A stretch of 64,000 bases of DNA. Source: Squalus acanthias (Eukaryota). The position numbers and the translations under genes are program-made. Where the stretch lies: positions 88,288,001 to 88,352,000 of the forward strand of contig CM059438.1 in the NCBI GenBank assembly GCA_030390025.1, in the 5' to 3' direction. The notes under the pieces are model-generated. The model saw only the letters and a list, made by a program, of their open reading frames with translations, ran no database searches and was not told where the DNA came from. How positions within the stretch are numbered: position 1 is the stretch's first letter; each line of letters opens with the position of its first letter. Below are positions 147 through 57,513 of this stretch, one piece after another.

Positions 147-305
147 CTGTGTTTTAATCTGCTCCACTTCCTGAGTCGAGAATTCAGTACGAAGGTACTG
201 GGGGATGTCCATCTCATCAACGATGTCTGATATCCGAGCTCTTAGGGAGTCACATTCCTGTACTGTGAGAAAATCTTCAATTGCAACAAAGCCATCTTTG
301 CTAAA
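147..305 (-). CDS. PHYHD1: PHYHD1 (phytanoyl-CoA dioxygenase domain-containing 1), second coding exon; gene continues past the left edge
   Basis: Translates [53 protein letters not shown] (53 codons), colinear with human [53 protein letters not shown]. Acceptor ttttgtcccatctccag (AG at 307-306), donor CAG|GTTGGT, phase 0 at both ends. Downstream of LRRC8A on the same strand, as in human. Confidence 0.93.
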
Positions 306-3505: not shown

Positions 3506-6215
3506 GAACATAGGAACAGGAGTAGGCCATTTAGCCCTCGAGCCTGTTCCACAATTCAATGAGATCATGGGTGATCTGTGACCTAACTCCATATACCCGC
3601 CTTTGGCCCATATCCCTTAATACCTTTCGTTAACAAAAATCTATCAATCTCAGATTTAAAATTAACAATTGACCTAGCATCAACTGCCGTTTGCGGAGGA
3701 GAGTTACAAACTTCTACCACCCTTTGTGTGTAGAAGTGTTTCCTAACTTCACTCCTGAAAGGTCTGGCTCTAATTTTTAGACTCTGCCCCCTAGTCATAG
3801 ACTCTCCAACCAGTGGAAATAGTTTCTCTCTATCTACCCTATCAGTTCCCCTTAATATCTTAAAAACTTCGATCAAATTATCCCTTAACCTTCTAAATTC
3901 CAGGGAATACAACCCTAGTTTGTGTAATTGCTCCTCGTAATTTAACCCCTGGAGTCCGGGTATCATTCTGGTAAATCTACGCTACACTCCCGCCAAGGCC
4001 AATATATCCTTCCTAAGGTGTGGAGCCCAGAACTGCTCACAGTACTCCAAGTGTGATCTAACCAAGACTTTGTATAGCTGCAGCATAACTTCTACCCCCT
4101 TTTATTCTAGTCCTCTAGATATAAAGGCCAGCATTCCATTAGCCTTTTTGATTATTTTCTGTACCTGTCCATGACATTTCAATGATTATGTACCTGGATC
4201 CTTAAGTCTCTTTGGACCTCCACTGTTTCTAGCTTTTCACCATTTAGAAAGTACTTTGATCTATCCTTTTTAGGTCCACAGTGGATGACCTCACTCTTGC
4301 CTATATTGAAATCCATTTGCCACAGTTTTGCCCATTTACTTTATTAATATCTCTTTATAATATTATACTTCCCTCTACACTGCTTACAATGTCGCCTATC
4401 TTTGTGTCATCGGCAAACTTGGATATGTGGCTCTCTATCCCATCATCTAAGCCGTTAGTAAATACGGTGAATAGTTGAGGCCCCAACACAGCTCCTTGCA
4501 GGACACTGCTAGTCACATCCTGTCAGTTAGAGTGCCTCCCATTATTCCTACTCTCTGTCTCCTGCCATTCAGCCAATTTCATGACCAAGCCAATAATTTG
4601 CCTTCAATTCCATGAGCTTCAGCTTTAGCTAACAGTCTCTTTATGCGAGACTTTATCAAATGCCTTCTGGAAGTCCAAATAAATAACATCCATAGACATT
4701 CCCCTGTCCACTATTTTAGTCACCTCTTTAAAAAAATTCAGTCAGGTTCGTCAGGCATGACCTACCCTTTACAAATCCATGCTGGGTCTTTGATCAGCTG
4801 AAAATTTTCAAGGTGTTCAGTCACTCTATCCTTAATTATAGACTCTAGTAATTTCCTAGCAACAGATGTTAGGCTAACTGGTTTCCTTCTCTCACCTTTC
4901 TGAAATAGCGGAGTGACATGTGTAATTTTCCAATCTAAAGGAACAGTTCCTGAATCGAGAGAACTTTGGAAGATTATAGTTAGGGCATTTGCAATGTTCT
5001 CACCTATTTCCTTTAAAACCCTGGGATGGAAACCATCTGGTCCTGGGGATTTGTCACTCGTTAGTGCCATTATTTTCTTCATTACTGTTATTTTGCTTAC
5101 GTTAATATTATATTGAGTCCCTGTCCCTGATTCAATATTAGTTTCCATGGGATGTCCGGCATGCTATCCTCTTCCTCTACTGTAAATACTGATGTAAAGT
5201 AATTATTCAACATGTCCGCCATTTCCTTATTTTCATTGACAGTATCACCGTTATCAGTTTTCAAGGGGTCCACATTGCTCCTGGCCACCCTCTTTTTCCT
5301 AATATAATTGTAAAAATTCTTTGTGTTGATTTTGATATCCGTTGCAAGTTTCTTTTCATACTCCCGTTTTGTAGCTCATACTGTCTGTTTTGTCTCCTTT
5401 TGTTGTTCTTTGTATCTCTCCCAGTCGCCAGGATCTGTTCTAGTTTTTGCATTTTTGTATGCTTTTTCTTTTAGTTTTATGTTGTCCCTTACCACTTTTG
5501 TCGTCCATGGCTGTATTTTTTTGGAAAGTAGAGCTCCTGCCCCTTAGGGGTATAAACTGGTTCTGTGTCACGTTAAATTATTTTTTGAACAGCTCCCACT
5601 GATCTGTCAATTTATTCAATAACAGATTTTCCCAGTTTACTGTGGACAGTCTCTGTCTCATCCCAGTGAAAATCAGCCTTACCTAAATCTATAATCTTAG
5701 TAGCTGTTTTGTGTTTTTTGCTTTCAAACACAATGTTGAATTCAATCATATTATGATCGCTATTAGATAAATATTCATGTACTGTTAGGCTGTTAACTAA
5801 ATCTGGCTCATTACTCATTATTAAATTTAATATAGCCTGCCTCCTTGTTGGTTCGAGGACATATTGTTGCAGGAAACTACCCTGAACACACTCAAGAAAT
5901 TTGCTACCTTTCAGACACAAGCTAGTCTGCTTATCCCAATCTATATGAAAGTTGAAATCCCCCATGAAAGCCACTCTGCCTTTACTATATGCTTGTCTAA
6001 TCTCTGCATTTATACATTCTGCCACGACACAGCTGTTACCAGGGAGCCTATACACAACTCCCACTAGTCTTAAATTCTTTTATATTTCTTAATTCTACCC
6101 ATAAAGTCTCCACTGCCTGCTTATCTCTCATTATATCCTCTTTTATCATTGAAGTAATTTCATCCTTAATCACGAAGCCCCCTCTAACAGTTTCCCTATC
6201 CTTCCTGTCGACCTG
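3506..6215 (-). mobile_element. CR1-clade LINE, 5'-truncated, disrupted ORF2 (APE endonuclease + reverse transcriptase)
   Basis: Fragments MGDFNF..IDW, SDHNMIEF, KSPGPDGFHPRVLKE, PVSLTSV, LEFRRLR..LIEVFKIL, FYTQRVV; frameshifts; 3' tail gcctactcctgttcctatgttc. Confidence 0.93.
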
Positions 6216-8044: not shown

Positions 8045-10462
8045 CTAACTGCCACCCATCTTTTCTCTTATTTCTAAAGGAAGTGACTCAAAAACATATT
8101 GTTCTATCGTAAGTCCACTGAGTTTCAGCATAGTGCATTGTCCTATTTCCACTGGGAGTTTTTCCAAGTTGTTTCCTTGGAGTTCCAACTGAGATAGTTG
8201 GCTGAGCTTTGAGATCTTCCCGCTGAGGGATGAGATTAAGTTATTGCTTAGCTTCAGAGTCATGAGCTTGTTACATTTGAAAAGCTGATCTGGTAGACTT
8301 TCTATTTTATTGTAACCCAAATCCAAAAAATAGAGGTTTTTGAGGTTCCCGATATCAGTTGGAATTATAGAAATGTTGTTGTTGTGTGCATCGAAGTAAT
8401 GCAGTTTCTCAATGTTGAAAAGGACTTTTGGTAACATCTCGATCTGGTTGTTTGATAAGTAAAGATACTCCAGCTTTTTGATTAAATTAATAGTTGGAGG
8501 GATGGATTTGATCATGTTGAACCAGAACTTCAAACAGGATAACCTTTCCAGATATTGCAAGTTGGCAATTTCTTCAATTCTGGTCAGATTGTTACCTTTA
8601 AGGTCCAAGACTTGAAGTTTGGATAAGGTATAAATGGCATTTGGGATTTTATCCAACTCACAGTTGTGCAGTTCAATTTGGGTCAGATTTACCATTTTCT
8701 TTAAGATACTTAGGCTCAAGAGCTTAGTCTTATCATTGTGAATACAAAGCTTGAGCAGGTGGAATGCAACGTCGATGATGGTGGAGGGTATTTTGGAGAG
8801 ACTCGATTTTAGGTAAAGGACTTTCAGAGAGCGAAGTCCCTTCAAGGATTCCAGTTCCACAGCTTTTTTTTCAATAGCTAGCTTTCCAGTGAGGTACAGC
8901 TCTTTCAGCTGGATCAGTTTGTAGATCCATTCAGGGATTTCATCCCGACTCACATATTTAACTCCCACTTTTTTCAGTTGGTTTCTCAGCCACATCAAAG
9001 CTGATGGTGTAACTTCAGTTACACAATGTGAGAGCCAGATTTCTTCCAAATGGTCAAGTTGGGTTATTTTATTGGATATTTTAACATTACTACAAAGCTC
9101 GAGCCTTAAGACTTGTAGCTCAGTAACATCATAGACAGACTCAGGAATTCCTTGCAGCATGAAAAGGTACAACTCAAACTGGTCCTTCTTAGTTTTTGTT
9201 AGATGTTCCTTCACCTTCTCCATAGTCCAATCGTTATTCAAACTTAACAATTTTAGCTTTTTCTCACTCACCTCTGAGAGGAAGACTGCGAGACGTTTGC
9301 AATACAGAGTGTCATACTGATCGATCAAATGCAACAAGAAGGCAAAGTCATTTGTTACGTCAGGGATATCACTGAATTGGTTTTCTCCCCGTTTCTCAAA
9401 AGAGTATTGCTTCAGAGGTTTTCTGAAAACCCAAAATATTGTGTGGATACAAAGTAGCCAATAGATAACCACTAAACCCAGATACAGCAGGGCCATTTTC
9501 CCAATGAAACGAGCAGTGGTATAAGTACAATTGAAACTCTTGTAAAAAACCAATGATATCGCATTAGGTTCACATAAATTATAAAAGCTGACAACATAAA
9601 TATAGGCTGGAAAGTAACCAATAATAATTAAGCAATGTATAGTTTTGAACAATGTTTGCCCAGCATAAAATTTATAGATTGTATCTTCCTCTTCAACATG
9701 GAGTCTGAATTTCCTTACTTTCTCAAACAAAGCTTTGGCTTGCTCTGCGTCCTTCTTGTCCAGGGATGAGCCAGATCCTGGTGTGCTTGAGTAAATACGT
9801 GTAGGAACTTTAACGGTTGATGCGTCAGCTTTAATACTGATCCCATCGTCGTCACTTACAGTGGACCTGCGTGGTGCTAGGGCTTCTTCCAGTTCACTGG
9901 CATCTACACAGACTGCTGTAGATAGGGCTTTGGATGTCCATGGTGACTGAAAACAGTTATGAAGGATGTCAAGAAATTGTTGCATTTTGGAGCTTGTTTT
10001 AGGATATGTGAAACAGAAGTTACTGCAGATAATCAGAACAACTGTATGGAATAAAATTAGGTAAGAGAAGAACCTGGTAAACCAGGGAATTTGACTATAA
10101 CACATTTGATTGACATAATAGTACTGCCAATTGTATAACTTTGTAACCCTCCCTTGGCTGATACGAGGAAACGGATCTGGATTCATTTGTACTTGTGGAT
10201 TGGCACTGACATCAGATATTCTTGGAGTATTTTGCAGGGTTGAACTTATCTCATTATGTGCTGTTCCTTTGGTTTCACCAGCTTTATTGAGATATGGCAA
10301 ACAGAAAGTCTCATCCATGTAAAGCTGTATGCTGCAGCCAAAGATAGCTAACAACAACATAATAATACTCAGATAATCCATGAAAGTGTCCCACCAAGGT
10401 TTGAAGATCCGGAAGGCAGGTTGCTTGTCTTCCAAAGTTGAAACGTCACTGACCGAAAACAT
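8045..10462 (-). CDS. LRRC8 family VRAC subunit, divergent LRRC8D-like paralogue 2 (805 aa, single coding exon)
   Basis: Intact ORF with pannexin-like 4-TM domain (RIFKPWWDTFMDYL, NQMCY, LDKKDAEQAKALFEKVRKFR, FSDIPDVTNDFAFLLHLIDQYD) followed by the LRR array. Start MFSVSD aligns without gaps to LRRC8A M1 and sits 2 nt after acceptor tttccatttatttcag|GT ATG. Confidence 0.93.
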   Translation of the reverse strand: MFSVSDVSTLEDKQPAFRIFKPWWDTFMDYLSIIMLLLAIFGCSIQLYMDETFCLPYLNKAGETKGTAHNEISSTLQNTPRISDVSANPQVQMNPDPFPRISQGRVTKLYNWQYYYVNQMCYSQIPWFTRFFSYLILFHTVVLIICSNFCFTYPKTSSKMQQFLDILHNCFQSPWTSKALSTAVCVDASELEEALAPRRSTVSDDDGISIKADASTVKVPTRIYSSTPGSGSSLDKKDAEQAKALFEKVRKFRLHVEEEDTIYKFYAGQTLFKTIHCLIIIGYFPAYIYVVSFYNLCEPNAISLVFYKSFNCTYTTARFIGKMALLYLGLVVIYWLLCIHTIFWVFRKPLKQYSFEKRGENQFSDIPDVTNDFAFLLHLIDQYDTLYCKRLAVFLSEVSEKKLKLLSLNNDWTMEKVKEHLTKTKKDQFELYLFMLQGIPESVYDVTELQVLRLELCSNVKISNKITQLDHLEEIWLSHCVTEVTPSALMWLRNQLKKVGVKYVSRDEIPEWIYKLIQLKELYLTGKLAIEKKAVELESLKGLRSLKVLYLKSSLSKIPSTIIDVAFHLLKLCIHNDKTKLLSLSILKKMVNLTQIELHNCELDKIPNAIYTLSKLQVLDLKGNNLTRIEEIANLQYLERLSCLKFWFNMIKSIPPTINLIKKLEYLYLSNNQIEMLPKVLFNIEKLHYFDAHNNNISIIPTDIGNLKNLYFLDLGYNKIESLPDQLFKCNKLMTLKLSNNLISSLSGKISKLSQLSQLELQGNNLEKLPVEIGQCTMLKLSGLTIEQYVFESLPLEIREKMGGS

Positions 10463-10689
10463 ACCTGAAATAAATGGAAAAATTTGAAGTGATATTTGAA
10501 ACATACATTTTGTAGACAGTTGAGATGTTCATTCTTTACATTATACCTTTGGGTTTGGGTAATTCCAGGCACGTGCATGCCATATAGGGGTACCCACTTA
10601 ATGCTGCAGCGTAGAAGAGGGACTGAGGGCATAGTTGACAAAACACTGAAGCTAGGACAGTTCAATATAAAACTAGAAACATTATACAG

Positions 10690-17731: not shown

Positions 17732-20227
17732 TTATACAAGGTGGTCCAATTCAGGATGTGACATCTTGTTGGGAATTAGGAGTCTGATCTCGGGAGGAGC
17801 CTCGGGGTTGGCATTCATATTTATTCTGATTTGTATAGGAAGTGTCTCGAACAAGTACTCATCCAATACCAGACCACTCTGTTTCAGTTTGCTGCACTGT
17901 GCTATCTCAACTGGGAGTTCTTCCAACGGATTTCCTTTGAGTTCCAGTTTTGAAAGTAGGGCACACTGCTGGATTTTCCCACTAAGGGATGTTAGTAAGT
18001 TATTGTTTAGCTTCAGAGTCTTGAGCTTCTTACACTGGAACAGCTCGTCTGGTAGAACTTCTAACTTATTGGAACTCAAATCTAGGTACTTCAGGTTTCT
18101 GAGGTATCTGACAGCCGTGGGAATCGCAGTCAGACGATTATTGCTCACGTCCAAATGATGTAGCTTCTGGATGTTAAACATACTATTTGGCAAGGTTTCA
18201 ATCTGATTGTTGGATGCATTAAAACGTTCAAGGTTGCCAATGTAACTAAAGGTATCTGGAACGGATTTGATTTTGTTGAAACTAAGATTGAAGGAGGACA
18301 ATCTGCGCAGGCGTTGCAAGCTTTCGATTTCCTCAATTGTGGAAAACTCGTTGCCCTGAAGGTTCAACACTTGCAGGTTGGAGAGGCCGAAGATGCCCTG
18401 CGGAATCTTCTCCAGGTCACAGTTTTGCAGATTAAGACGGGCGAGGTTGACCATGCTGCCCAGATTGTGGAGCATCTCCAGCTTGTTCTTGTTGTTGAAG
18501 ATCGACAGCTCGGTCAAGTGGGGCGCCACGTACAGCACGTTGAACGGGATCTTCACCAGGTTGCTGTTGATCTGGAGGACCTTCAAGTAGCGAAGCTCTT
18601 TTAAGAACTCCATCTCCAACGTTGTACTCTCGGTGTTGACGTTCCCAATCAAGCAAAGCTCTCGCAGTCTGGTCAGCTTACTGACCCACTCGGGCACCTC
18701 CTCGTGATCCGAAAAGGTGACTGACAGTGAGCGCAACTGGTTGCCTAAGAAGAATAACGCGGCTGGTTTGACGGTGACGATGCAGCTGACGATGGAGAGT
18801 TCTTCCAGGTGGACCAGCTGGGTGACCTTGGTGTTTATGTTAATATCGTTGCAAAGCTCCATCTTCAAGACCTGCACCTCTGTCACATCGTAGACGGCCT
18901 CGGGGATGCCTGTCAACATGAAGAGGTGGAGTTCCAACTGCTCCTTATTGTTTCGGATCAGCTGCTGCCTGACCTTGTCCGCCGTCCAGTCGCTGTTCAA
19001 GCTCAGCAGCTTCAGTTTTTTCTCGCTGGCCTCGGACAGGAAGATGGAGAACCGCTTGCAGTACAAGGGGTCGTACTGGTCGATCAGGTGCAGCAGGAAG
19101 GCGAAGTCGTTCTTGACGTTGGGGATGTCGCTGAACTGGGTTTCCCGTTTCTCGAAGGAGTACTGCTTCAGGGGCGTCCTCAGGACCCAGCTGAGGGTGC
19201 GGAAGCAGAGCAGGAGGTAGATGGCCACCAGAGACAGGTAGAGCAGGAGCAGCCGCCTGAGCAAGAAGGCCACACTGAAAGTGCAAATGAAAAGCCCGTA
19301 GCCCGTCACCGATTCTGTGCCGGGTCGACATATAATGTCAAAACCCACCGCTTCCACGAACACGGTGAAATAGCACAAAATCGCGAGGCACTGCAGGGTT
19401 TTAAGGACCAGCTGCCCAACATAGAGTTTGTAGATGGTGTCCTCTTTTTCCACGTGCAGCCTGAATTTCCTCACTTTCTCAAACAAGGCTTTGGCTCGCT
19501 CGCCATCCTTCTTGTCCAGCAGCTCGTACTGCCTCTGCATTACCGGGTTGTCGCGAGTGAAGCCTTTGCTCGGGTCGCTGATGCTATGGGCCACCGTCTT
19601 GAAGGAGGCCGGAATGCTTTTGCGCTTTTCTTGCGCCCTGATGTTCATGTTGCTGCTGGTCTCCGTGACCGCCAGAGAGAGGACATCGGTTGTCCAGGGC
19701 GACTCGAAACACTTCTCTAAGATAAAGATCAAGTGTTCTATCTTGGAGCTGGTCTTGGGATACTTGAACCAGAAGTTGCTGCAGACCATTAAGGCGACGG
19801 TGTGCAGCAGAATGAAATAGGAGAAATATTTGGGAAACCAGGGCACTGCATGGAAATAGCACGCCTGGTTGACATAGCGGTACTGCTGAAGGTCTAAGTT
19901 CGTTTTCCCTCCATAGATGGCATACACCGCATTGACGTGACTGAGTCCAGCGAATTCTGGGTGACCTGATCTACCACGAAGTTGAGTTACATTATGAACC
20001 GCGCTGGTTGAGTTGACTTCAGTGTGTGATCGGTTGCTGGAAGCAGAATCGGCCAGAATTGGCAAACAGACAGTCTTGTCCTTGTATATCTGTGTGGTGC
20101 CTCCAAACACAGCGACCATCAGCATGGTGATCGCTAAATAGTCCATGAAGGCGTCCCACCAGGGCTTAAAGATCCGGAAGGATGGTGGGGATTTACTGAC
20201 TGAAGAAATTTCTTCGAAGGTAAACAT
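17732..20227 (-). CDS. LRRC8 family VRAC subunit, divergent LRRC8D-like paralogue 1 (831 aa, single coding exon)
   Basis: Intact ORF: MFTFEE..RIFKPWWDAFMDYLA, KTNLDLQQY, SNFWFKYPKTSSK, LDKKDGERAKALFEKVRKFR, VKNDFAFLLHLIDQYDPLY, full LRR domain. ATG lies 2 nt after acceptor ctcttcttctgtatttag|GA ATG and aligns without gaps to LRRC8A M1. Confidence 0.94.
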   Translation of the reverse strand: MFTFEEISSVSKSPPSFRIFKPWWDAFMDYLAITMLMVAVFGGTTQIYKDKTVCLPILADSASSNRSHTEVNSTSAVHNVTQLRGRSGHPEFAGLSHVNAVYAIYGGKTNLDLQQYRYVNQACYFHAVPWFPKYFSYFILLHTVALMVCSNFWFKYPKTSSKIEHLIFILEKCFESPWTTDVLSLAVTETSSNMNIRAQEKRKSIPASFKTVAHSISDPSKGFTRDNPVMQRQYELLDKKDGERAKALFEKVRKFRLHVEKEDTIYKLYVGQLVLKTLQCLAILCYFTVFVEAVGFDIICRPGTESVTGYGLFICTFSVAFLLRRLLLLYLSLVAIYLLLCFRTLSWVLRTPLKQYSFEKRETQFSDIPNVKNDFAFLLHLIDQYDPLYCKRFSIFLSEASEKKLKLLSLNSDWTADKVRQQLIRNNKEQLELHLFMLTGIPEAVYDVTEVQVLKMELCNDININTKVTQLVHLEELSIVSCIVTVKPAALFFLGNQLRSLSVTFSDHEEVPEWVSKLTRLRELCLIGNVNTESTTLEMEFLKELRYLKVLQINSNLVKIPFNVLYVAPHLTELSIFNNKNKLEMLHNLGSMVNLARLNLQNCDLEKIPQGIFGLSNLQVLNLQGNEFSTIEEIESLQRLRRLSSFNLSFNKIKSVPDTFSYIGNLERFNASNNQIETLPNSMFNIQKLHHLDVSNNRLTAIPTAVRYLRNLKYLDLSSNKLEVLPDELFQCKKLKTLKLNNNLLTSLSGKIQQCALLSKLELKGNPLEELPVEIAQCSKLKQSGLVLDEYLFETLPIQIRINMNANPEAPPEIRLLIPNKMSHPELDHLV

Positions 20228-37176: not shown

Positions 37177-37452
37177 TCAGGCTTGTTCCTTGTCTGCTCG
37201 CCACAGCTGCTCCTTGACCTCAGACGGGAGTGTAGTGAAGAGATCGTCCTCTACCACGAGGCCGCTCCGTTTGAGTAGCCGGCATTCTCCGAGCTCCACA
37301 GGGAGACACTCTAGTCTGTTTCCACGAAGCTCCAGCTGTGTCAAGCTCGTCAGCTCGCCGACCCGTGACGGCAGTGATAGCAGGCAGTTATTCCCCAGGT
37401 TTAGGGTCCGGAGCTTACGACACTGGAAGAGTTCAGGTGGCAGTGTTTCAAT
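37177..37452 (-). CDS. LRRC8A: LRRC8A (SWELL1) last coding exon (91 aa + stop)
   Basis: IETLPPELFQCRKLR...KRSGLVVEDDLFTTLPSEVKEQLWRADKEQA*, with the diagnostic LRRC8A C-terminus; acceptor catcttgcag at 37454-37453, phase 0. Confidence 0.97.
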   Translation of the reverse strand: METLPPELFQCRKLRTLNLGNNCLLSLPSRVGELTSLTQLELRGNRLECLPVELGECRLLKRSGLVVEDDLFTTLPSEVKEQLWRADKEQA

Positions 37453-38810
37453 CTGCAAGATGCGAGGGGGGGGGGGGGGGGGGGGGGGGGCAAGAAAGAG
37501 AACAAAAATGTCAAATATTTTAACTGATGCACTTGTTGGACTGAAGTAGCATGTTAGAAAAAGAGCTTATTTATTCAGAGAATACCAAAGATTTTTTTTT
37601 ATAAACGCTCCAAGTATTTTCTCATATTATATTAGGAATTTGGAGGAAGTAATTTTCACACTGGCTATAGAACAGAAGACACACAATTAAATGTCAAAAG
37701 GATTAAAAACCATTTCTTCATTAAGGGTCTCCCAGTAAATCACTTGCACATTTTAGTCTATGTTTGGCTCCATGAACTGTAGGCATGCACAGAATATGTA
37801 CAAACTGAATACAGTAGAAAGTAGTATTTTTTATTAAGTCCATTTGGACAGCACACATCCTCTGCTTCACTGCGAGCTCGTCAATGGTGGGATTTGCACC
37901 GAGTAACTCGGGAGATTTATTTACAAAAATGCAAAACTGAGAGAAATATTTTTTGAAAGTAGTTACTTCTAATCCTCATTTTACTTTAGGAAAGATTAGT
38001 AGGTAGTCTGGCCTTATTTTATCTTTCTGCTGGCGAGAGTGGAGCAGGACTAGCATGTAGCTGCTTCCTAATAATAACTCTTTCGTGGGAAGGTTTAATT
38101 TGACATTGAAATGTTAATTAAATTGGTTTGAGAAACAAAAAACGACTTTACACTCAGCATGGGCAAAAACATGTCACAGCCGCATGTTAAAAAGGCGTCT
38201 AAGCTTTGTAAAAGTAAAGGCAAAGCCCAAATGGCGTAATTATTGGTATAACTGCTACCTGTAGTAATCTAGCAGCCGCTGCTTCAAGGATTGAGTAGCT
38301 GTAGTGCAGAACAGCTAATGGATGCCTCAGAGGAGACACCTATAAAGCCTCAACGTTCTGCTCTCACAGCAAACTTGGACTAATTAAGTTCAGACTTGCG
38401 GGGGGGGGGGGGGGGGAAAGGTAATTGGGTAAAAGAAAACGGGAAAACTGGAAAGGTTCAAAAGTTAACCAAAAGCAAAATACTGCAGACTATAAAACGT
38501 ACTTGTGTCAGATGCCAGAACTCGAGCTTAGGGCTCCAGTGATCAAATCCCAGTCATTGCACAACAGGTTGCACTCAAGCTTCCCTTACAGTTTGCCAGT
38601 CTCAACCTAGTGGAGGGTGGGACTACTTAGCATACATCTTCATGGGATAAGCAAACAGCAATATTAATGAAGTCCACAAAGATGTTTAGACTGTCCTACC
38701 CTGCTGTTTAAAAGATTGCATTGACGATGGGCAGAAGGGGGCAAAATAGATGTAAATGTAGTTGAATAGTGCACATATATTAATTATTAGAGTTGAACGC
38801 ACACACTCAC

Positions 38811-40982
38811 CCTGTTCGCAGTGACAGCGAAATACTGCAGATTCTGAAGGAATCCAATGTCCTGTGGTATGGAGGTTAGGTTATTATGACTCAAATCTAA
38901 GTACCGCAATTTGCGGCAATAGAAGAGCTGAGCGGGTATCTTTTCAATTTTGTTCCGGTTCAGGTAGAGCCTTTCCATATTGGTCAAAGTGCCAATCTGA
39001 ATGGGGATATAGGCAATGTGGTTATACCACAGCTTAAGGCAGACTAGGCGCCGTAGGTGCTGGAAGCTGATTATTTCCTCGATTGTCTTCAAGTTGTTGT
39101 CTTTGAGATCGATCTCCTGCAAGTTATGGAGACTGAAGATTGAGTGTGGGATTCGCTCCATGTCACAACGGATCAACTCCAATTCTGTCAGATTAACCAT
39201 CTTCTTTAGACTATTGAGGACCATAAGCTTGGTGCCCTCATTGTTGATGGACAATTTCTGCAGATGGACTCCAACATCCGTGACAACCTGTGGCAACTTT
39301 GTCAGGTTGCTCTTCAACCTCAAAACTTTGAGGCATTTGAGTTCCCGCAAGCCGTCAATCACAATGTAGCGATTGTTCTCCGCACTCAGATTCCCAGTTA
39401 GGTGAAGCTCTTCAAGGTTCTTCAGGCTGTAGATCCATAGAGGGATCTCTTTGATGTCTGTAAACTTAATATGTAGTGACTTCAGGTGCTCCCGTAAGAA
39501 GGCAAGAGCTGGTGCCTCAATCTTTGCTGGTGTGTGGTACAACCAGAGTTCTTTGAGGTTGGTAAGTTGGGCAATGATCGGAGGAATGGTGACATCCAGG
39601 ATCATCTCCAGTTTGAGCACTTCCAGCTCAGTCAGGTCAAAGATGGTGTCTGGGATTCCACTCAGCATGAAGAGGTGGAGCTCCAGTTTGTCCTGAGAGT
39701 TTTTCATGATCCTCTGCCGGAGTTTCTCCAGGGTCCATTCATTATTCAGATTGAGCTGCCGTAATTTGTTCTCGCTGACCTCAGACAGAAAGACGGCAAA
39801 ACGTTTCGAGTACAACGGATCGTACTGATCAATCAGGTGCAACATGAAAGCAAAATCATTCTTGACATCAGGGATGTCGCTGTAGCTGCTCTCCTCCCGA
39901 ATGGACTCGAACGAATACTTTTTCAGAGAACGCCGTAGCATCCACCAGAGTGTGTACATGCAAATGAGTCCATAGACAATCACTAAACTAATGTAAAAGG
40001 ATGCAAGGATCTTGAACAGTGTAGCTAATGGATGAGCGCACTGGTACACACGGTACCCTGTGAGGTTCTGAATGTCCACTATACAGGACACATCAAATTT
40101 TATATCATCAACATAATAAAGTGAGTAACTAATAATAAGAGCAAATTTGATTACTTTGATAATAGTCTGTCTCATGTAGAGTTGGTAAACTATATCCCCT
40201 TCCTCTACATGGGTACGGAATTTCTTTACTTTTTCAAACAGGGCTTTAGCTTGTTCGCCCTCCTTCTTATCCAGTACGCCCGTTTCTGAGCGATCAACTA
40301 TTCCCTGCTCGATGCGAGATTTTGTTCTTTGCAGCATGGGTACGCTGGCCTCCACATCCTCACTCACCGAGGAGGATTTCTTTGCCATTGAGCCATTCAT
40401 TTTAACAAATGACTGTTTCGGGTCACTCTCCTCCACCACAGTTTCAGATAGCGCCCGCGTTGTCCACGGCGAGTCAAAACATTTCAGAAGGATGGATACA
40501 AAGTGTTCCAGCTTTGAGCTGGTCCGAGGATATTTGAACCAGAAATTGCTACACACTAAGAACACCAGTGTGTGCAGAAGTACAAGGTATGGAAAGTATT
40601 TTGCAAACCAGTGAAGTTTATTCTCGTAGCATACCGCATCCACATAGTTGTACTGGTGCCGGTCCAAGTCATACTGGATACCCGTCGGTTCATTGGAAAA
40701 TGGGGGAAGGACTGAAGATGGTGGGAGGGATGCATTTGGGTATTCAGCGGTTGGCGACTCGGTGGGTAGTGGCTGAACAGGTTCAACGCACGTATTGTTC
40801 ATAACCCACTTGCAGGGTAAACAAATCATCTTGTCTTGTGTGACCTGCAGTGTGCCACCAAACACTGCTATCATAAGCATTACGATGGAGATGTAGTCCG
40901 TAAACACGTCCCACCATGGTTTCAAGATGCGGTAGGCAGGCTGGGTGTCAGCAAAATATCGTAGTTCTGTTACCGGAATCAT
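38811..40982 (-). CDS. LRRC8A: LRRC8A (SWELL1), obligatory VRAC subunit, main coding exon (724 codons; 815 aa in total)
   Basis: MIPVTELRYFADTQPAYRILKPWWDVFTDY..YDLDRHQYNYVDAVCY.., near-identical to human LRRC8A. Acceptor tctctcttaatttccag|GTGCGTG ATG (exon starts 40989); donor AGG|GTGAGT after ANR, the same intron position as in human. Confidence 0.98.
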
Positions 40983-43522: not shown

Positions 43523-44960
43523 TTATGACTCACCTTTATCTTTGTGAGTAGGATGAGCCTGTTTGCTAACGCTCAATTTGTGGAATCTCTGTTTAATTTT
43601 GGAGAGTTTCAAATGCAAATCATTCTCTACATTCAAGCTGCTCCTATATTTGCTTTTTGATGTAAATAAATAAAAACTCATTTCACACAGATATGTTGAG
43701 GCAAAGTGGACAAATATCTCAATGGATCTTTGGGACAACTCAGGGAACTCTTTTTGAATTAAGAGGCATAACTGATCAAGAGGCATGACTTTAAAATTGT
43801 CTGGCAAAACAGAGTCACCAACACAGTCGATCAAATTCTCTTTTAGACTCATGGGACTCTTGGCCTTTGCTACAATGTCCTCTGAAAATAAATTTTGAAG
43901 CCAGGCAAAATCCTGCAATTCATTTGCCTCTCTTTCATTCATTGAATTTTGTGCAAAGCCAAGACAAATGCTCCAGAATTACATCTTGAACTTCTAGGAC
44001 CGACATTTCGCAGTGTCCAGAATAACAAAAAACGATGTCAGGAACGTGGTTACATTGTCTTACAGCACATAGCTACTCCCTACCAAACGTTTTTGGCAAA
44101 GCTTTATACTTTTCGTGCATGATGTCAACATTACAGTTCTTCTTCTTAGGCAGTCCCTCGGAACCGAGGATGACTTGCTTCCACACTAAAAAAGAGTTCG
44201 CAGGTGACTGATGAGTCCAATGCGGGACCTGCAGTCTCTGTCACAGGTGGGGCAGACGGTGGTTGAAGGGGCGGGTGGGTGGGGTGCTTGGGTTGACGTG
44301 CGCTCCTTCCGCTTGCTCCCGGCGAAGAGACTCGAGGTGTTCGGCGCCTTCCCGGATACTTCTCCACTTTGTGCGGTCTTGGGCCAGGGATTCCCAGGTG
44401 TCGGTGGGGATGTTTCACTTTTTCAAGGAGGCTTTGAGGGTGTCCTTGAAGCGTTTCCTCTGCCCACCTGGGGCTCTCTTGCCGTGACAAAGCTCCGAGT
44501 AGAGCGCTTGTTTACAGTTCTTACCTTGCAAAGAAGCATTGAGTTCATTGAGCTTGTCAAATATATCGGCCAAAACGCCCAGTAAAACTTGGAAGTGCTG
44601 GTCGTGGAAGTGAAATGGTGATTCAGAGTCAATCAAAAACATGCAGCATTCATCCCTGAGTTTGCAGATTCTTGCCAAAACTTTACCACGAGTCAGCCAT
44701 CGAACTTCTTTGATTACTTTCATCTGTCCTTTCAGTTGAAAGAGCTTTCGTTTGGAAAAATCTCGTGGTTTATCTTTGAGGGCAGGATGTTCGATCTCCA
44801 AGTGGTGTTTTAGTTTGCTTTGTTTCATGCAATCCCGAGCAAGAAATTCAGCGCAAACAACAGATTACGGTTGACAATTTTTGGTAGACCAGCAAATGTG
44901 AATCCCAAGTCCAAGTAGGGAAGACCGTTTTTCCTGTTTTTCTTTTGCCCGACTCTACTC
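43523..44960 (-). mobile_element. Decayed hAT (Charlie/Buster/ZBED5-like) transposase, internally deleted and split by an RTE insertion
   Basis: MKQSKLKHHLEIEHPALKDKP, EVRWLTRGKVLARI, LADIFDKLNELNASLQGKN and FASTYLCEMSF..KYRSSLNVENDLHLKLS..KQAHPTH are Buster/Charlie motifs; stops and frameshifts present. Confidence 0.88.
44142..44511 (-). mobile_element. RTE-clade LINE 3' fragment with 11-bp TSD
   Basis: LYSELCHGKRAPGGQRKRFKDTLKASLK is an RTE/BovB-type C-terminal motif; (AAG)n tail; TSD TTACAGTTCTT at 44131-44141 and 44512-44522. Confidence 0.85.
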
Positions 44961-52002: not shown

Positions 52003-52430
52003 GGGGATTGGACAGCCCAGTGGATCAGAAAGAGACACCTCTCACCTCTGGGACCGGTGAACAAATCCAGTCCTGACCTCTCACCTCTGGGACCGGTGTA
52101 CAAATCCAGTCCTGACCTCTCACCTCTGGGACCGGTGAACAAATCCAGTCCTGACCTCTCACCTCTGGGACCGGTGTACAAATCCAGTCCTGACCTCTCA
52201 CCTCTGGGACCGGTGTACAAATCCAGTCCTGACTGATGTGATGAAAATTTCCTGTTTGCTGGCTGTAAGAGTTCCATGTGAAATAATTTTACAGACAGTC
52301 GCAGACCACTTCCTGTTCGGCATGGTCCCACAGCACAACCCAGCTCAGTACTAATTAGCAATGTTACTTACAAAGGCCACAGCTGGTGTGGGAAATGGAA
52401 AAAATGGAGGACAGAAATCAACTTGATGAT
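52003..52430 (+). mobile_element. LF-SINE-like element whose head carries a tandem amplification
   Basis: ctctcacctctgggacc...aaatccagtcc..gatgaaaatttcc..gctggctgtaag..catgtgaaat..gtactaattagca, homologous to 26730-27000. Confidence 0.6.
52038..52232. repeat. 39-bp tandem repeat, 5 copies
   Basis: Unit CCTCTCACCTCTGGGACCGGTG(A/T)ACAAATCCAGTCCTGA; copies differ at one position only. Confidence 0.97.
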
Positions 52431-56014: not shown

Positions 56015-57513
56015 TCTGGCCATAATCTTCCAATCCTCCTTAGAAACAGGGGTGGTGCCAGAGGACTGGAGAATTGCAAATGTTTACACCCTTCTTCAAA
56101 AAAGGGTGTAAAGATAAACCCAGCAACTACAGGCCAGCCAGTTTAACCTCGGTAGTGGGGAAGCTTTTAGAAACAATAATCAGGGACAAAATGAACAGTC
56201 ACTTGGACAAGTGTGGATTAATTAAGGAAAGTCAGCACGGATTTGTTAAAGGCAAATTGTGTTTAACCAACTTGGAGTTTTTTGATGAGGTCACAGAGAG
56301 CGTTGATGAGGGCAATGCAGTTGATGTGGTGTACATGGATTTCCAAAAGGCGTTCGACAAAGTGCCACATAATAGGCTTGCCAGCAAAGTAGAAGCCCAT
56401 GGAATAAAAGGGACAGTGGCAGCATGGATATGAAATTGGCTAAGTGACAGGAAACAGAGAGTAGTGGTGAATGGTTGTTTTTTGGACTGGAGGAAGATAT
56501 ACAGTGGTGCTCCCCAGGGGTCGGTTCTAGGACCACTGCTTTTCTTGATATATATTATTGACTTAGATGTGGGTGTACAGGGCACAATTTCAAAATCTGA
56601 AGATGACACAAAACTTGGAAGTATAGTGAACAGTAAGGAGGATAATTCTAGACTTCCAAGAGGACATAGACAGGCTGGTGGAATGGGCGGACACATGGCA
56701 AATTTAACGCAGAAAAGTGAGACGTGATACATTTTGGTAGAAAGAATGAGGAGAAGAAATATAAACTAAAGGGTACAATCCTAAAAGGGGTGCATGAACA
56801 GAGACACCTAGGGGTATATGTGCACAAATCGTTGAAGGTGGCAGGGCAGGTTGAGAAAGCAGTTAAAAAAGCTTACAGGATCCTGGGCTTCATGAATAGA
56901 GGTATAGGGTACAAAAGCGTGGAAATTATGATGAACCTGTATAAAACACTGGTTCGGCCTCAACTGGAGTATTATGTCCGATTCTGGGCACCACATTTTA
57001 GGAAGAATGTGAAGGCCTTGGAGAGGGTGCAGAAAAGATTTACAAGAATGATTCCAGGGATGAGGGACTTCAGTTACGTGGATAGATTGGAGAAGCTAGG
57101 GTTGTTCTCCTTAGAGCAGAGTGAATTGAGAGGAGATTTGATAGAGGTGTTCAAAATCATGCGGGGTCTGGACAGAGTAGATAGAGAGAAACTGTTCCCA
57201 TTGGCAGAAGGGTCGAGAACCAGAGAACACAGATTTAAGGTGATTGGCAGAAGAACCAAAGACGACATGAGGAAAACCTTTTTTACTCAGCGAATGGTTA
57301 GGATCTGGAATGCACTGCCTGAAAGGGTGGTGGAGGCAGACTTAATCACGGCTTTCAAAAGTGAATTGGATAAGTACCTGAAGTAAAAGAATTAGCAGGG
57401 CTACGGGGAAAGGGTGGGGGAGTGGGACTAGCTGAAGTGCTCTTGCAGAGAGCCGACACGGGCTCGACAGGCTGAATGGCCTTCTTCCGTGCTGTAACCA
57501 TTCTATGATTCTA
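56015..57513 (+). mobile_element. CR1 LINE, 5'-truncated reverse transcriptase region with frameshifts
   Basis: NYRPASLTSVVGKLLE, SQHGFVKGK, YMDFQKAFDKVPH, GAPQGSVLGPLLFLIYI, EDDTKL, YKTLVRPQLEY; tail ttctatgattcta. Confidence 0.95.

Follow-up and report, generated by a model that had tools for sequence, protein, structure and literature searches.

A 64 000-nucleotide stretch of the Squalus acanthias genome (the window) encodes three LRRC8 proteins, LRRC8A and two tandem genes that we call paralogue 1 and paralogue 2. It raises the question of what kind of VRAC subunit paralogue 2 is, and whether its altered pore residues could change what the channel lets through. The substrate choice of VRAC is set by the partners of LRRC8A, and the field relies on five mammalian genes; paralogue 2 is a natural variant older than the split of sharks and chimaeras, and offers a ready-made probe of selectivity. 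The original prediction, drawn from a comparison with LRRC8A, held that paralogue 2 has a rewritten outer pore in which both basic positions are lost and aromatics are gained.

Gene, locus and lineage

The reading frame of paralogue 2 (827 codons on the minus strand, 8045-10528) has its first ATG at 10462, with an acceptor-like tttcag just before it in the codon read-out (Table 1). The product is a member of the LRRC8/VRAC family: it matches the four-TM Pannexin-like domain (PF12534, Pannexin_like; profile positions 1-346, E 1.2e-102), has LRR families at its C-terminal part (Pfam), and keeps the extracellular cysteines, i.e. C54 and C113 of EL1 (12 out of 12 orthologues) and two EL2 cysteines that align across all three LRRC8 proteins of the window. 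The predicted monomer has four long helices; its fold resembles LRRC8A, C and D structures, the LRR domain aligning with that of LRRC8C (8ben) at a TMt of 0.94 (Foldseek). In a PDB sequence search LRRC8D was the best match (E 4e-248), followed by A and then C, and paralogue 2 is ∼44-50% identical to LRRC8D. The monomer model (pTM 0.54; pLDDT <50 at 47-50 and 60-104) supports the helix register only, with the EL1H helix beginning at model residue 111, the equivalent of R103 (local pLDDT ∼50-73). A complex prediction for shark LRRC8A(1-410) with paralogue 2(1-410), made without alignments and without folded controls, scored 0.01, a value that is neutral with regard to co-assembly. In four presumed RNA runs, set against no silent stretch as a control, short near-exact pieces fell within the ORF (at least seven, listed for three of the runs), and these runs also gave a broader cover from a related organism.

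Table 1. Features of the window and of the paralogue 2 coding exon (residues in LRRC8A numbering)
Feature	Position	Strand	Remarks
PHYHD1-like (PhyH-domain) first-part exon	147..281	-	tblastn E 4.5e-11; marks cluster end
Paralogue 2 coding exon	8045..10462	-	intact 805-aa LRRC8/VRAC subunit, LRRC8D lineage
TM2-IL1 junction (W143C, K145T, E154Q)	9980..10015	-	K145 and E154 contact N-terminus in LRRC8A
Outer constriction, 97-106 (R-V-T-K-L-Y-N-W-Q-Y)	10121..10150	-	Y102 for D102 lid, N103 at filter, W104
Codons of K100; Y102; N103; W104	10139-41; 10133-35; 10130-32; 10127-29	-	codon read-out
TM1 end and TM1-EL1 linker, 44-51 (S44, Y48, M49, D50, E51)	10310..10333	-	net ∼-2 over 49-51
Codons of S44; Y48; E51	10331-10333; 10319-21; 10310-12	-	codon read-out
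N-terminal inner filter, 5-8 (S5, D6, S8)	10439..10450	-	acidic residue retained; 8 not basic, like LRRC8D
Paralogue 1, tandem sister	17732..20227	-	831 aa; E5-E6, S8, Y48, basic 51, D102, Q104
LRRC8A	37180..40982	-	main coding exon 40982 to ∼38808, last exon 37455-37180

Read along the minus strand, the order is LRRC8A, paralogue 1, paralogue 2 and the PhyH-domain exon. A PF05721 match 14 kb past the window lies on the same strand as this exon; in a fused sheep record the PhyH-domain gene comes next after LRRC8A, and here the exon stands at the end of the cluster. The LRRC8A of the window is likely to be the obligatory partner of paralogue 2, and published work has the non-A subunits requiring LRRC8A. 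A Narcine record (P0186) merges paralogues 1 and 2 into one 1743-aa model; this fusion is probably an annotation artefact, and it confirms that the two genes are adjacent. The window also holds two tandem arrays (911-2146, 58.9 copies of a 21-bp unit; 52037-52233, 5.1 copies of a 39-bp unit) and three open frames (5612-6079, 43523-43978 and 56232-57386) that presumably are retroelement and DNA-transposon fragments, which they resemble.

A homologue search in which the 7999 best candidates were scored and the best 120 listed gave 11 close relatives of paralogue 2 at 60-84% identity, ten of them from sharks, rays and Callorhinchus; a cluster look-up added further species, the little skate among them. 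Among the 150 matches listed from 1.84 billion representatives there was no closer relative outside cartilaginous fishes, and the best 120-150 matches listed contained no bony-vertebrate orthologue, although a highly diverged copy could escape such a search; for the coelacanth, A and D were among the matches listed and a paralogue 2 orthologue was not. Paralogue 2 was thus found only in cartilaginous fishes (sharks, rays and chimaeras) among the matches listed, and paralogue 1 has the same taxonomic range. Proteins of both are present in RefSeq as automatic 'LRRC8D-like' models. No paper describing them was found (subscription papers, including a 2012 family phylogeny, may cover them), and the accessible text of PMC6028502 and PMC12182595 makes no mention of extra LRRC8 paralogues.

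In three trees (quick or FastTree searches, with long branches present) paralogues 1 and 2 form one clade (support 100) that is sister to D+D2 (D2, F and F2 are working labels of this analysis). Paralogue 2 groups with D-type genes and not with A/B or C/E (support 96-100). A clade with LRRC8A was rejected by the AU test (p 8e-27), which rules out that paralogue 2 is an LRRC8A duplicate, and so was a clade with A+B (p 2e-13). The gene also falls outside the vertebrate LRRC8D clade (D+D2), the genome having its own D on contig C15. LRRC8A is therefore the wrong yardstick for paralogue 2, since the gene belongs to the LRRC8D lineage. W104, the non-acidic 102, the acidic 51, M/L49, S44, D6 and S8 predate the shark-chimaera split, as all of them are already in Callorhinchus.

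In the shark genome ∼10 LRRC8 genes are spread over four contigs, three of them large and one small (C14, which includes the window; C15:11.88-12.18 Mb; C22:9.55, 23.45 and 24.18 Mb; C508). The clusters are A with paralogues 1 and 2, B-C-D-F, and E, D2 and F2, an arrangement consistent with genome-wide duplication of an ancestral four-gene cluster. D2-like and F-like genes are also found in lungfish, gar, a lizard and newts. The F-type gene (L032; C15:12.175 Mb) combines R103 with E104; papers describe a basic residue at the filter for A and B alone. F2 (L021:923-3253; C22:9.56 Mb) has an in-frame stop after ∼322 main-exon codons, and is either a pseudogene or an assembly error.

Altered sites of paralogue 2

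Sites were scored in two tests. The first compared 12 orthologues with the full set of 157 D-type matches and with 11 rows of paralogue 1, one of which was partial. The second compared 23 orthologues with 11 rows of paralogue 1 (now without the partial one), 30 of LRRC8A (25 drawn at random and five selected), 12 of B, 10 of C, 40 drawn at random from the 157 of D, and eight genes of the shark genome. Not among the 23 orthologues are a further Logan protein from the skate cluster and a further Callorhinchus model, whose motifs match those of their cluster mates.

All substitutions named in the original prediction (T44S, T48Y, K51E, D100K, D102Y, R103N and H104W) are present at the codon level, and paralogue 2 aligns with LRRC8A without gaps from G96 to C113; the S44 codon lies ten bases outside the interval 10121..10321 to which the changes had been assigned. 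The headline of that prediction, that both basic positions are lost, is not supported as a mark of paralogue 2. Lacking R103 and K51 is unremarkable because the LRRC8D lineage lacks both (basic at 103 in 0 and at 51 in two of 157 rows; R8 is also absent), so that the loss is not a novelty but the ordinary LRRC8D state. Nor has the outer mouth become less basic: the mean net charge over 97-104 is +1.8 in paralogue 2, +0.2 in D and -0.4 in A, with R or K at position 97 in 23 out of 23 orthologues and K100 in 18.

W104 is found in all 23 orthologues, in none of the 111 other LRRC8 rows and in none of 57 scorable distant representatives. Position 102 is never acidic in the orthologues (17 Y, five H and one F; in skates and the chimaera it is His instead of Tyr), whereas it is acidic in 103 of the 111 other rows, the eight exceptions all being His in LRRC8B (eight of 12 B rows). 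Position 103 varies (N in 10, I in nine, V in two, Y and T in one each), and the idea that N103 is a filter residue under selection was rejected. At position 107, 21 orthologues have an aromatic residue (nine W, seven Y and five F). The LRRC8D signature of F/Y103, D102 and Q104 is hardly seen here (Y103 in one of 23, D102 and Q104 in none), F/Y103 being present in 157 of 157 D-type rows and D102 in 148. As a side observation, elasmobranch LRRC8D (L014; P0083, P0084, P0144, P0145, P0153, P0160 and P0166) and coelacanth LRRC8D have E102 and mostly Y103; elasmobranchs and the coelacanth both retain urea and TMAO. Elasmobranch LRRC8A (window position ∼40670) has Q98 for the inactivation residue K98, and Callorhinchus has K98, the site being variable across fishes.

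In the linker, position 51 is E in 12 orthologues, D in seven and N in four, i.e. acidic in 19 of 23 vs 0 of 111 other rows, and it is acidic in three distant representatives. N51 is confined to four myliobatiform rays; since these form a single clade, its covariation with loss of K100 was not counted as evidence. Position 49 is M or L in 23/23 orthologues vs K or R in 40/40 D rows, and the net charge over 49-51 is -1.8 in paralogue 2 vs 0 in A, C and D. S44 is found in 22/22 orthologues, S8 in 20/20 and D6 in 19/20. A reading of Y48 as a changed lipid gate was rejected: Y48 is common to paralogues 2 and 1 (11/11 of the latter), human LRRC8C has M48, and LRRC8A carrying T48Y or T48W (with C) gates like the wild type in the accessible text of 10.1101/2022.07.31.502239 (whose legend prints 'T48T').

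Other fixed losses are Y124F, W143C, K145T, E154Q and H155Q. Within the first 410 positions 171 sites are conserved across the family; paralogue 2 has lost 31 of these, 12 of them by a radical change, and D102 and Q/H104 belong to the 12. Many differences are expected, because paralogue 2 is just ∼45-50% identical to LRRC8A or D, and the excess of change at pore sites is modest (binomial P 0.02-0.04, for site sets picked after seeing the data). The aligned sequences indicate that W104, the loss of the D102 lid, the net-acidic 49-51, T44S and the loss of K145 and E154 have been fixed since the chimaera split. The rewritten outer pore therefore stands in part: W104, a non-acidic 102, a mostly acidic 51, S44 and Y48 are ancient and partly fixed, but 103 is variable, and of the YNW motif and E51, whose conservation had been put forward as a check, W104 is conserved and the motif as such is not. 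The changed sites (W104, D102 and acidic 51) are invariant in nearly all other LRRC8s examined.

Possible consequences for permeation

In the accessible text of the papers cited here, LRRC8 channels have two serial filters, R103 and E6/R8; A/C channels without both R8 and R103 prefer Na+, neutralizing R103 raises Na+ permeability, and K145 and E154 contact the N-terminus and are tied to activation (PMC10480491). LRRC8D is needed for neutral and cationic solutes, and A/D channels carry both (PMC6451053, PMC12182595). D50 and K51 face the pore in some subunits and the interface in others (in one structure K51 points to the interface in five subunits out of seven), and both are able to face the vestibule below the filter (PMC10049205). 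K98 and D100 shape inactivation (PMC12182595). At position 48, just below the linker, M48D in a homomeric chimera lowered the reversal potential from 9.9 to 2.4 mV, and a T48D/M48D heteromer kept it (10.1 vs 10.8 mV) (PMC13596092). The accessible parts of PMC6395065 and PMC6086657 held nothing useful on H104, D102 or K51.

The reading that we favour, at a probability of about 0.5, is that paralogue 2 joins LRRC8A in channels with a path that is wider and more acidic than with D, and with a lower anion selectivity. If it co-assembles with LRRC8A into swelling-activated channels, as predicted, each paralogue 2 subunit of a hexamer would, like a D subunit, cost both filters a basic residue; position 103 would carry a small or aliphatic side chain, and Tyr or His would stand in for the acidic lid. 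The linker at 49-51, which is net-acidic here and neutral in A, C and D, may lower the barrier for Na+, choline and zwitterions, and W104 would probably be packed in the inter-subunit cleft, shifting the helix tip and not lining the axis. Channels of A and paralogue 2 would then likely pass neutral osmolytes and small cations more readily than A/C channels do, and probably more readily than A/D channels. Lower anion selectivity had already been proposed, and it is plausible in that R8/R103 mutants pass more Na+, A/D channels carry uncharged and cationic solutes, M48D shifts the reversal potential of the chimera, and the skate VRAC is leaky; but the more basic outer mouth (97-104) favours anions, and so counts against it. 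A minority paralogue 2 subunit may also change little, because in 4:2 A:D channels the filter is still narrowed by an LRRC8A R103, and T48D is effective in A and has no effect in D alone (PMC12795811). The unchanged reversal potential of the T48D/M48D heteromer points the same way. Residue 103 varies, four rays have N51, K51 mostly faces the interface in the structure cited above, and the pore-site enrichment is weak, all of which speak against this reading.

It is possible, at a clearly lower probability, that the fixed aromatics instead remodel the subunit interface, with W104 and Y/H102 setting partner choice, stoichiometry or gating and permeability staying D-like. Residues 101-106 border the inter-subunit cleft (L101/D102 and H104/Q105/Y106; PMC13596092, PMC8831520), and neither H104A nor R103A is listed among flux-slowing mutants in the accessible text of 10.1101/331207, and the pore role that had been read into H104 is not supported. 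The variable filter residue would also suit a remodelled interface, as would the many fixed changes off the outer pore (the five losses listed above), which include activation-linked anchors of the N-terminus. D102, however, is a lid directly above the constriction at R103, and D102A slowed iodide flux, as did Q105A and Y106A (10.1101/331207); the net-acidic charge change at 49-51 would also be left unexplained by packing alone. If permeability turns out to be only D-like, what is left of the finding is a paralogue not studied before whose interface is unusual.

That paralogue 2 lowers anion selectivity lends itself to a specific and cheap test on an old oddity, the VRAC of skate hepatocytes, which passes Na+, Cs+ and especially choline much more readily than the mammalian channel. 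The hepatocyte values reportedly trace to a 1996 paper cited by a review, and the species is said to be the little skate. The usual Pcation/PCl of VRAC is 0.02-0.04, and in skate hepatocytes it is ∼0.2 for Cs+ and Na+ and 0.55 for choline (PMC6363415). LRRC8A, paralogue 1 and paralogue 2 are on one contig of the little skate, whose paralogue 2 has D50-D51, K100, H102, N103 and W104; the skate current is directly testable against paralogue 2 because the little skate has the gene. Judged by its residues, paralogue 2 could explain the cation-leaky swelling current of skate liver cells. Paralogue 1 or shark LRRC8D could explain it equally well, paralogue 1 having E5-E6, no R8 or R103, and a more acidic inner filter than paralogue 2 (net -1.9 over 5-8). 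We consider it doubtful that paralogue 2 is the cause of the cation and choline permeability of the skate VRAC, making the channel a poorly selective route of methylamine release through an acidic vestibule and an aromatic rim of a kind absent from mammalian subunits.

A narrower proposal, that an aromatic cage (Y102, W104, Y106 and Y/W107) together with D50/E51 is tuned to the trimethylammonium solutes choline, betaine and TMAO, is improbable. Cartilaginous fishes use methylamine osmolytes, the gene is limited to them among the matches listed, choline is reported to be more permeant than Na+ and Cs+ in skate hepatocytes, and position 107 is mostly aromatic. However, His102 replaces Tyr in skates and the chimaera, LRRC8D already has F/Y103 throughout, and aromatic cages would fit binding sites better than wide pores. 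The coelacanth also retains TMAO, yet no orthologue was among the matches listed for it, though its A and D were found; and osmolyte efflux from skate red cells has been attributed to AE1. The aromatic filter for TMAO or betaine, as first suggested, is not directly supported.

Similarly improbable is that paralogue 2 is silent or inhibitory like LRRC8B, damping or retaining LRRC8A channels: LRRC8B gives no current with A (accessible text of PMC6028502), is the only other subunit with a non-acidic 102 among the rows compared, and several family-conserved gating contacts are gone from paralogue 2, but the gene is of the D and not the B lineage, keeps T99, L101, Q105, D50, C54 and C113, and has 177 of 406 columns invariant across the 23 orthologues.

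Comparison with known LRRC8 subunits

Among known systems LRRC8D (PDB 6m04, 9dx7 and 9t5m), whose filter is widened by F143 (accessible text of PMC7229184), is the closest: it is the best PDB match and the tree lineage of paralogue 2, and the two share the lack of a basic residue at 8, 51 and 103, an MF(S/T) N-terminus, T99, N110, a basic 97 (in mammalian D) and a one-exon coding region. Paralogue 2 is nevertheless not its orthologue, with ∼44-50% identity and with D and D2 both present in the same genome, and it differs by W104 for Q, Y/H102 for D, N/I/V103 for F/Y, Y48 and S44 for T, M49-D50-E51 for K49-D50-Q51, and K145T, E154Q and W143C. With LRRC8A (SWELL1) it shares the fold, ∼45% identity, the locus and the strand, but LRRC8A has R8, K51, D102, R103 and H104 in 30/30 rows, and paralogue 2 is not its duplicate. 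Paralogue 1 (RefSeq 'LRRC8D-like') is the sister gene, alike in taxonomic range and in Y48, S8, F20 and C275; it differs in keeping D102, Q104, T44 and the basic residues at 49 and 51, and in having E5-E6 at the inner filter.
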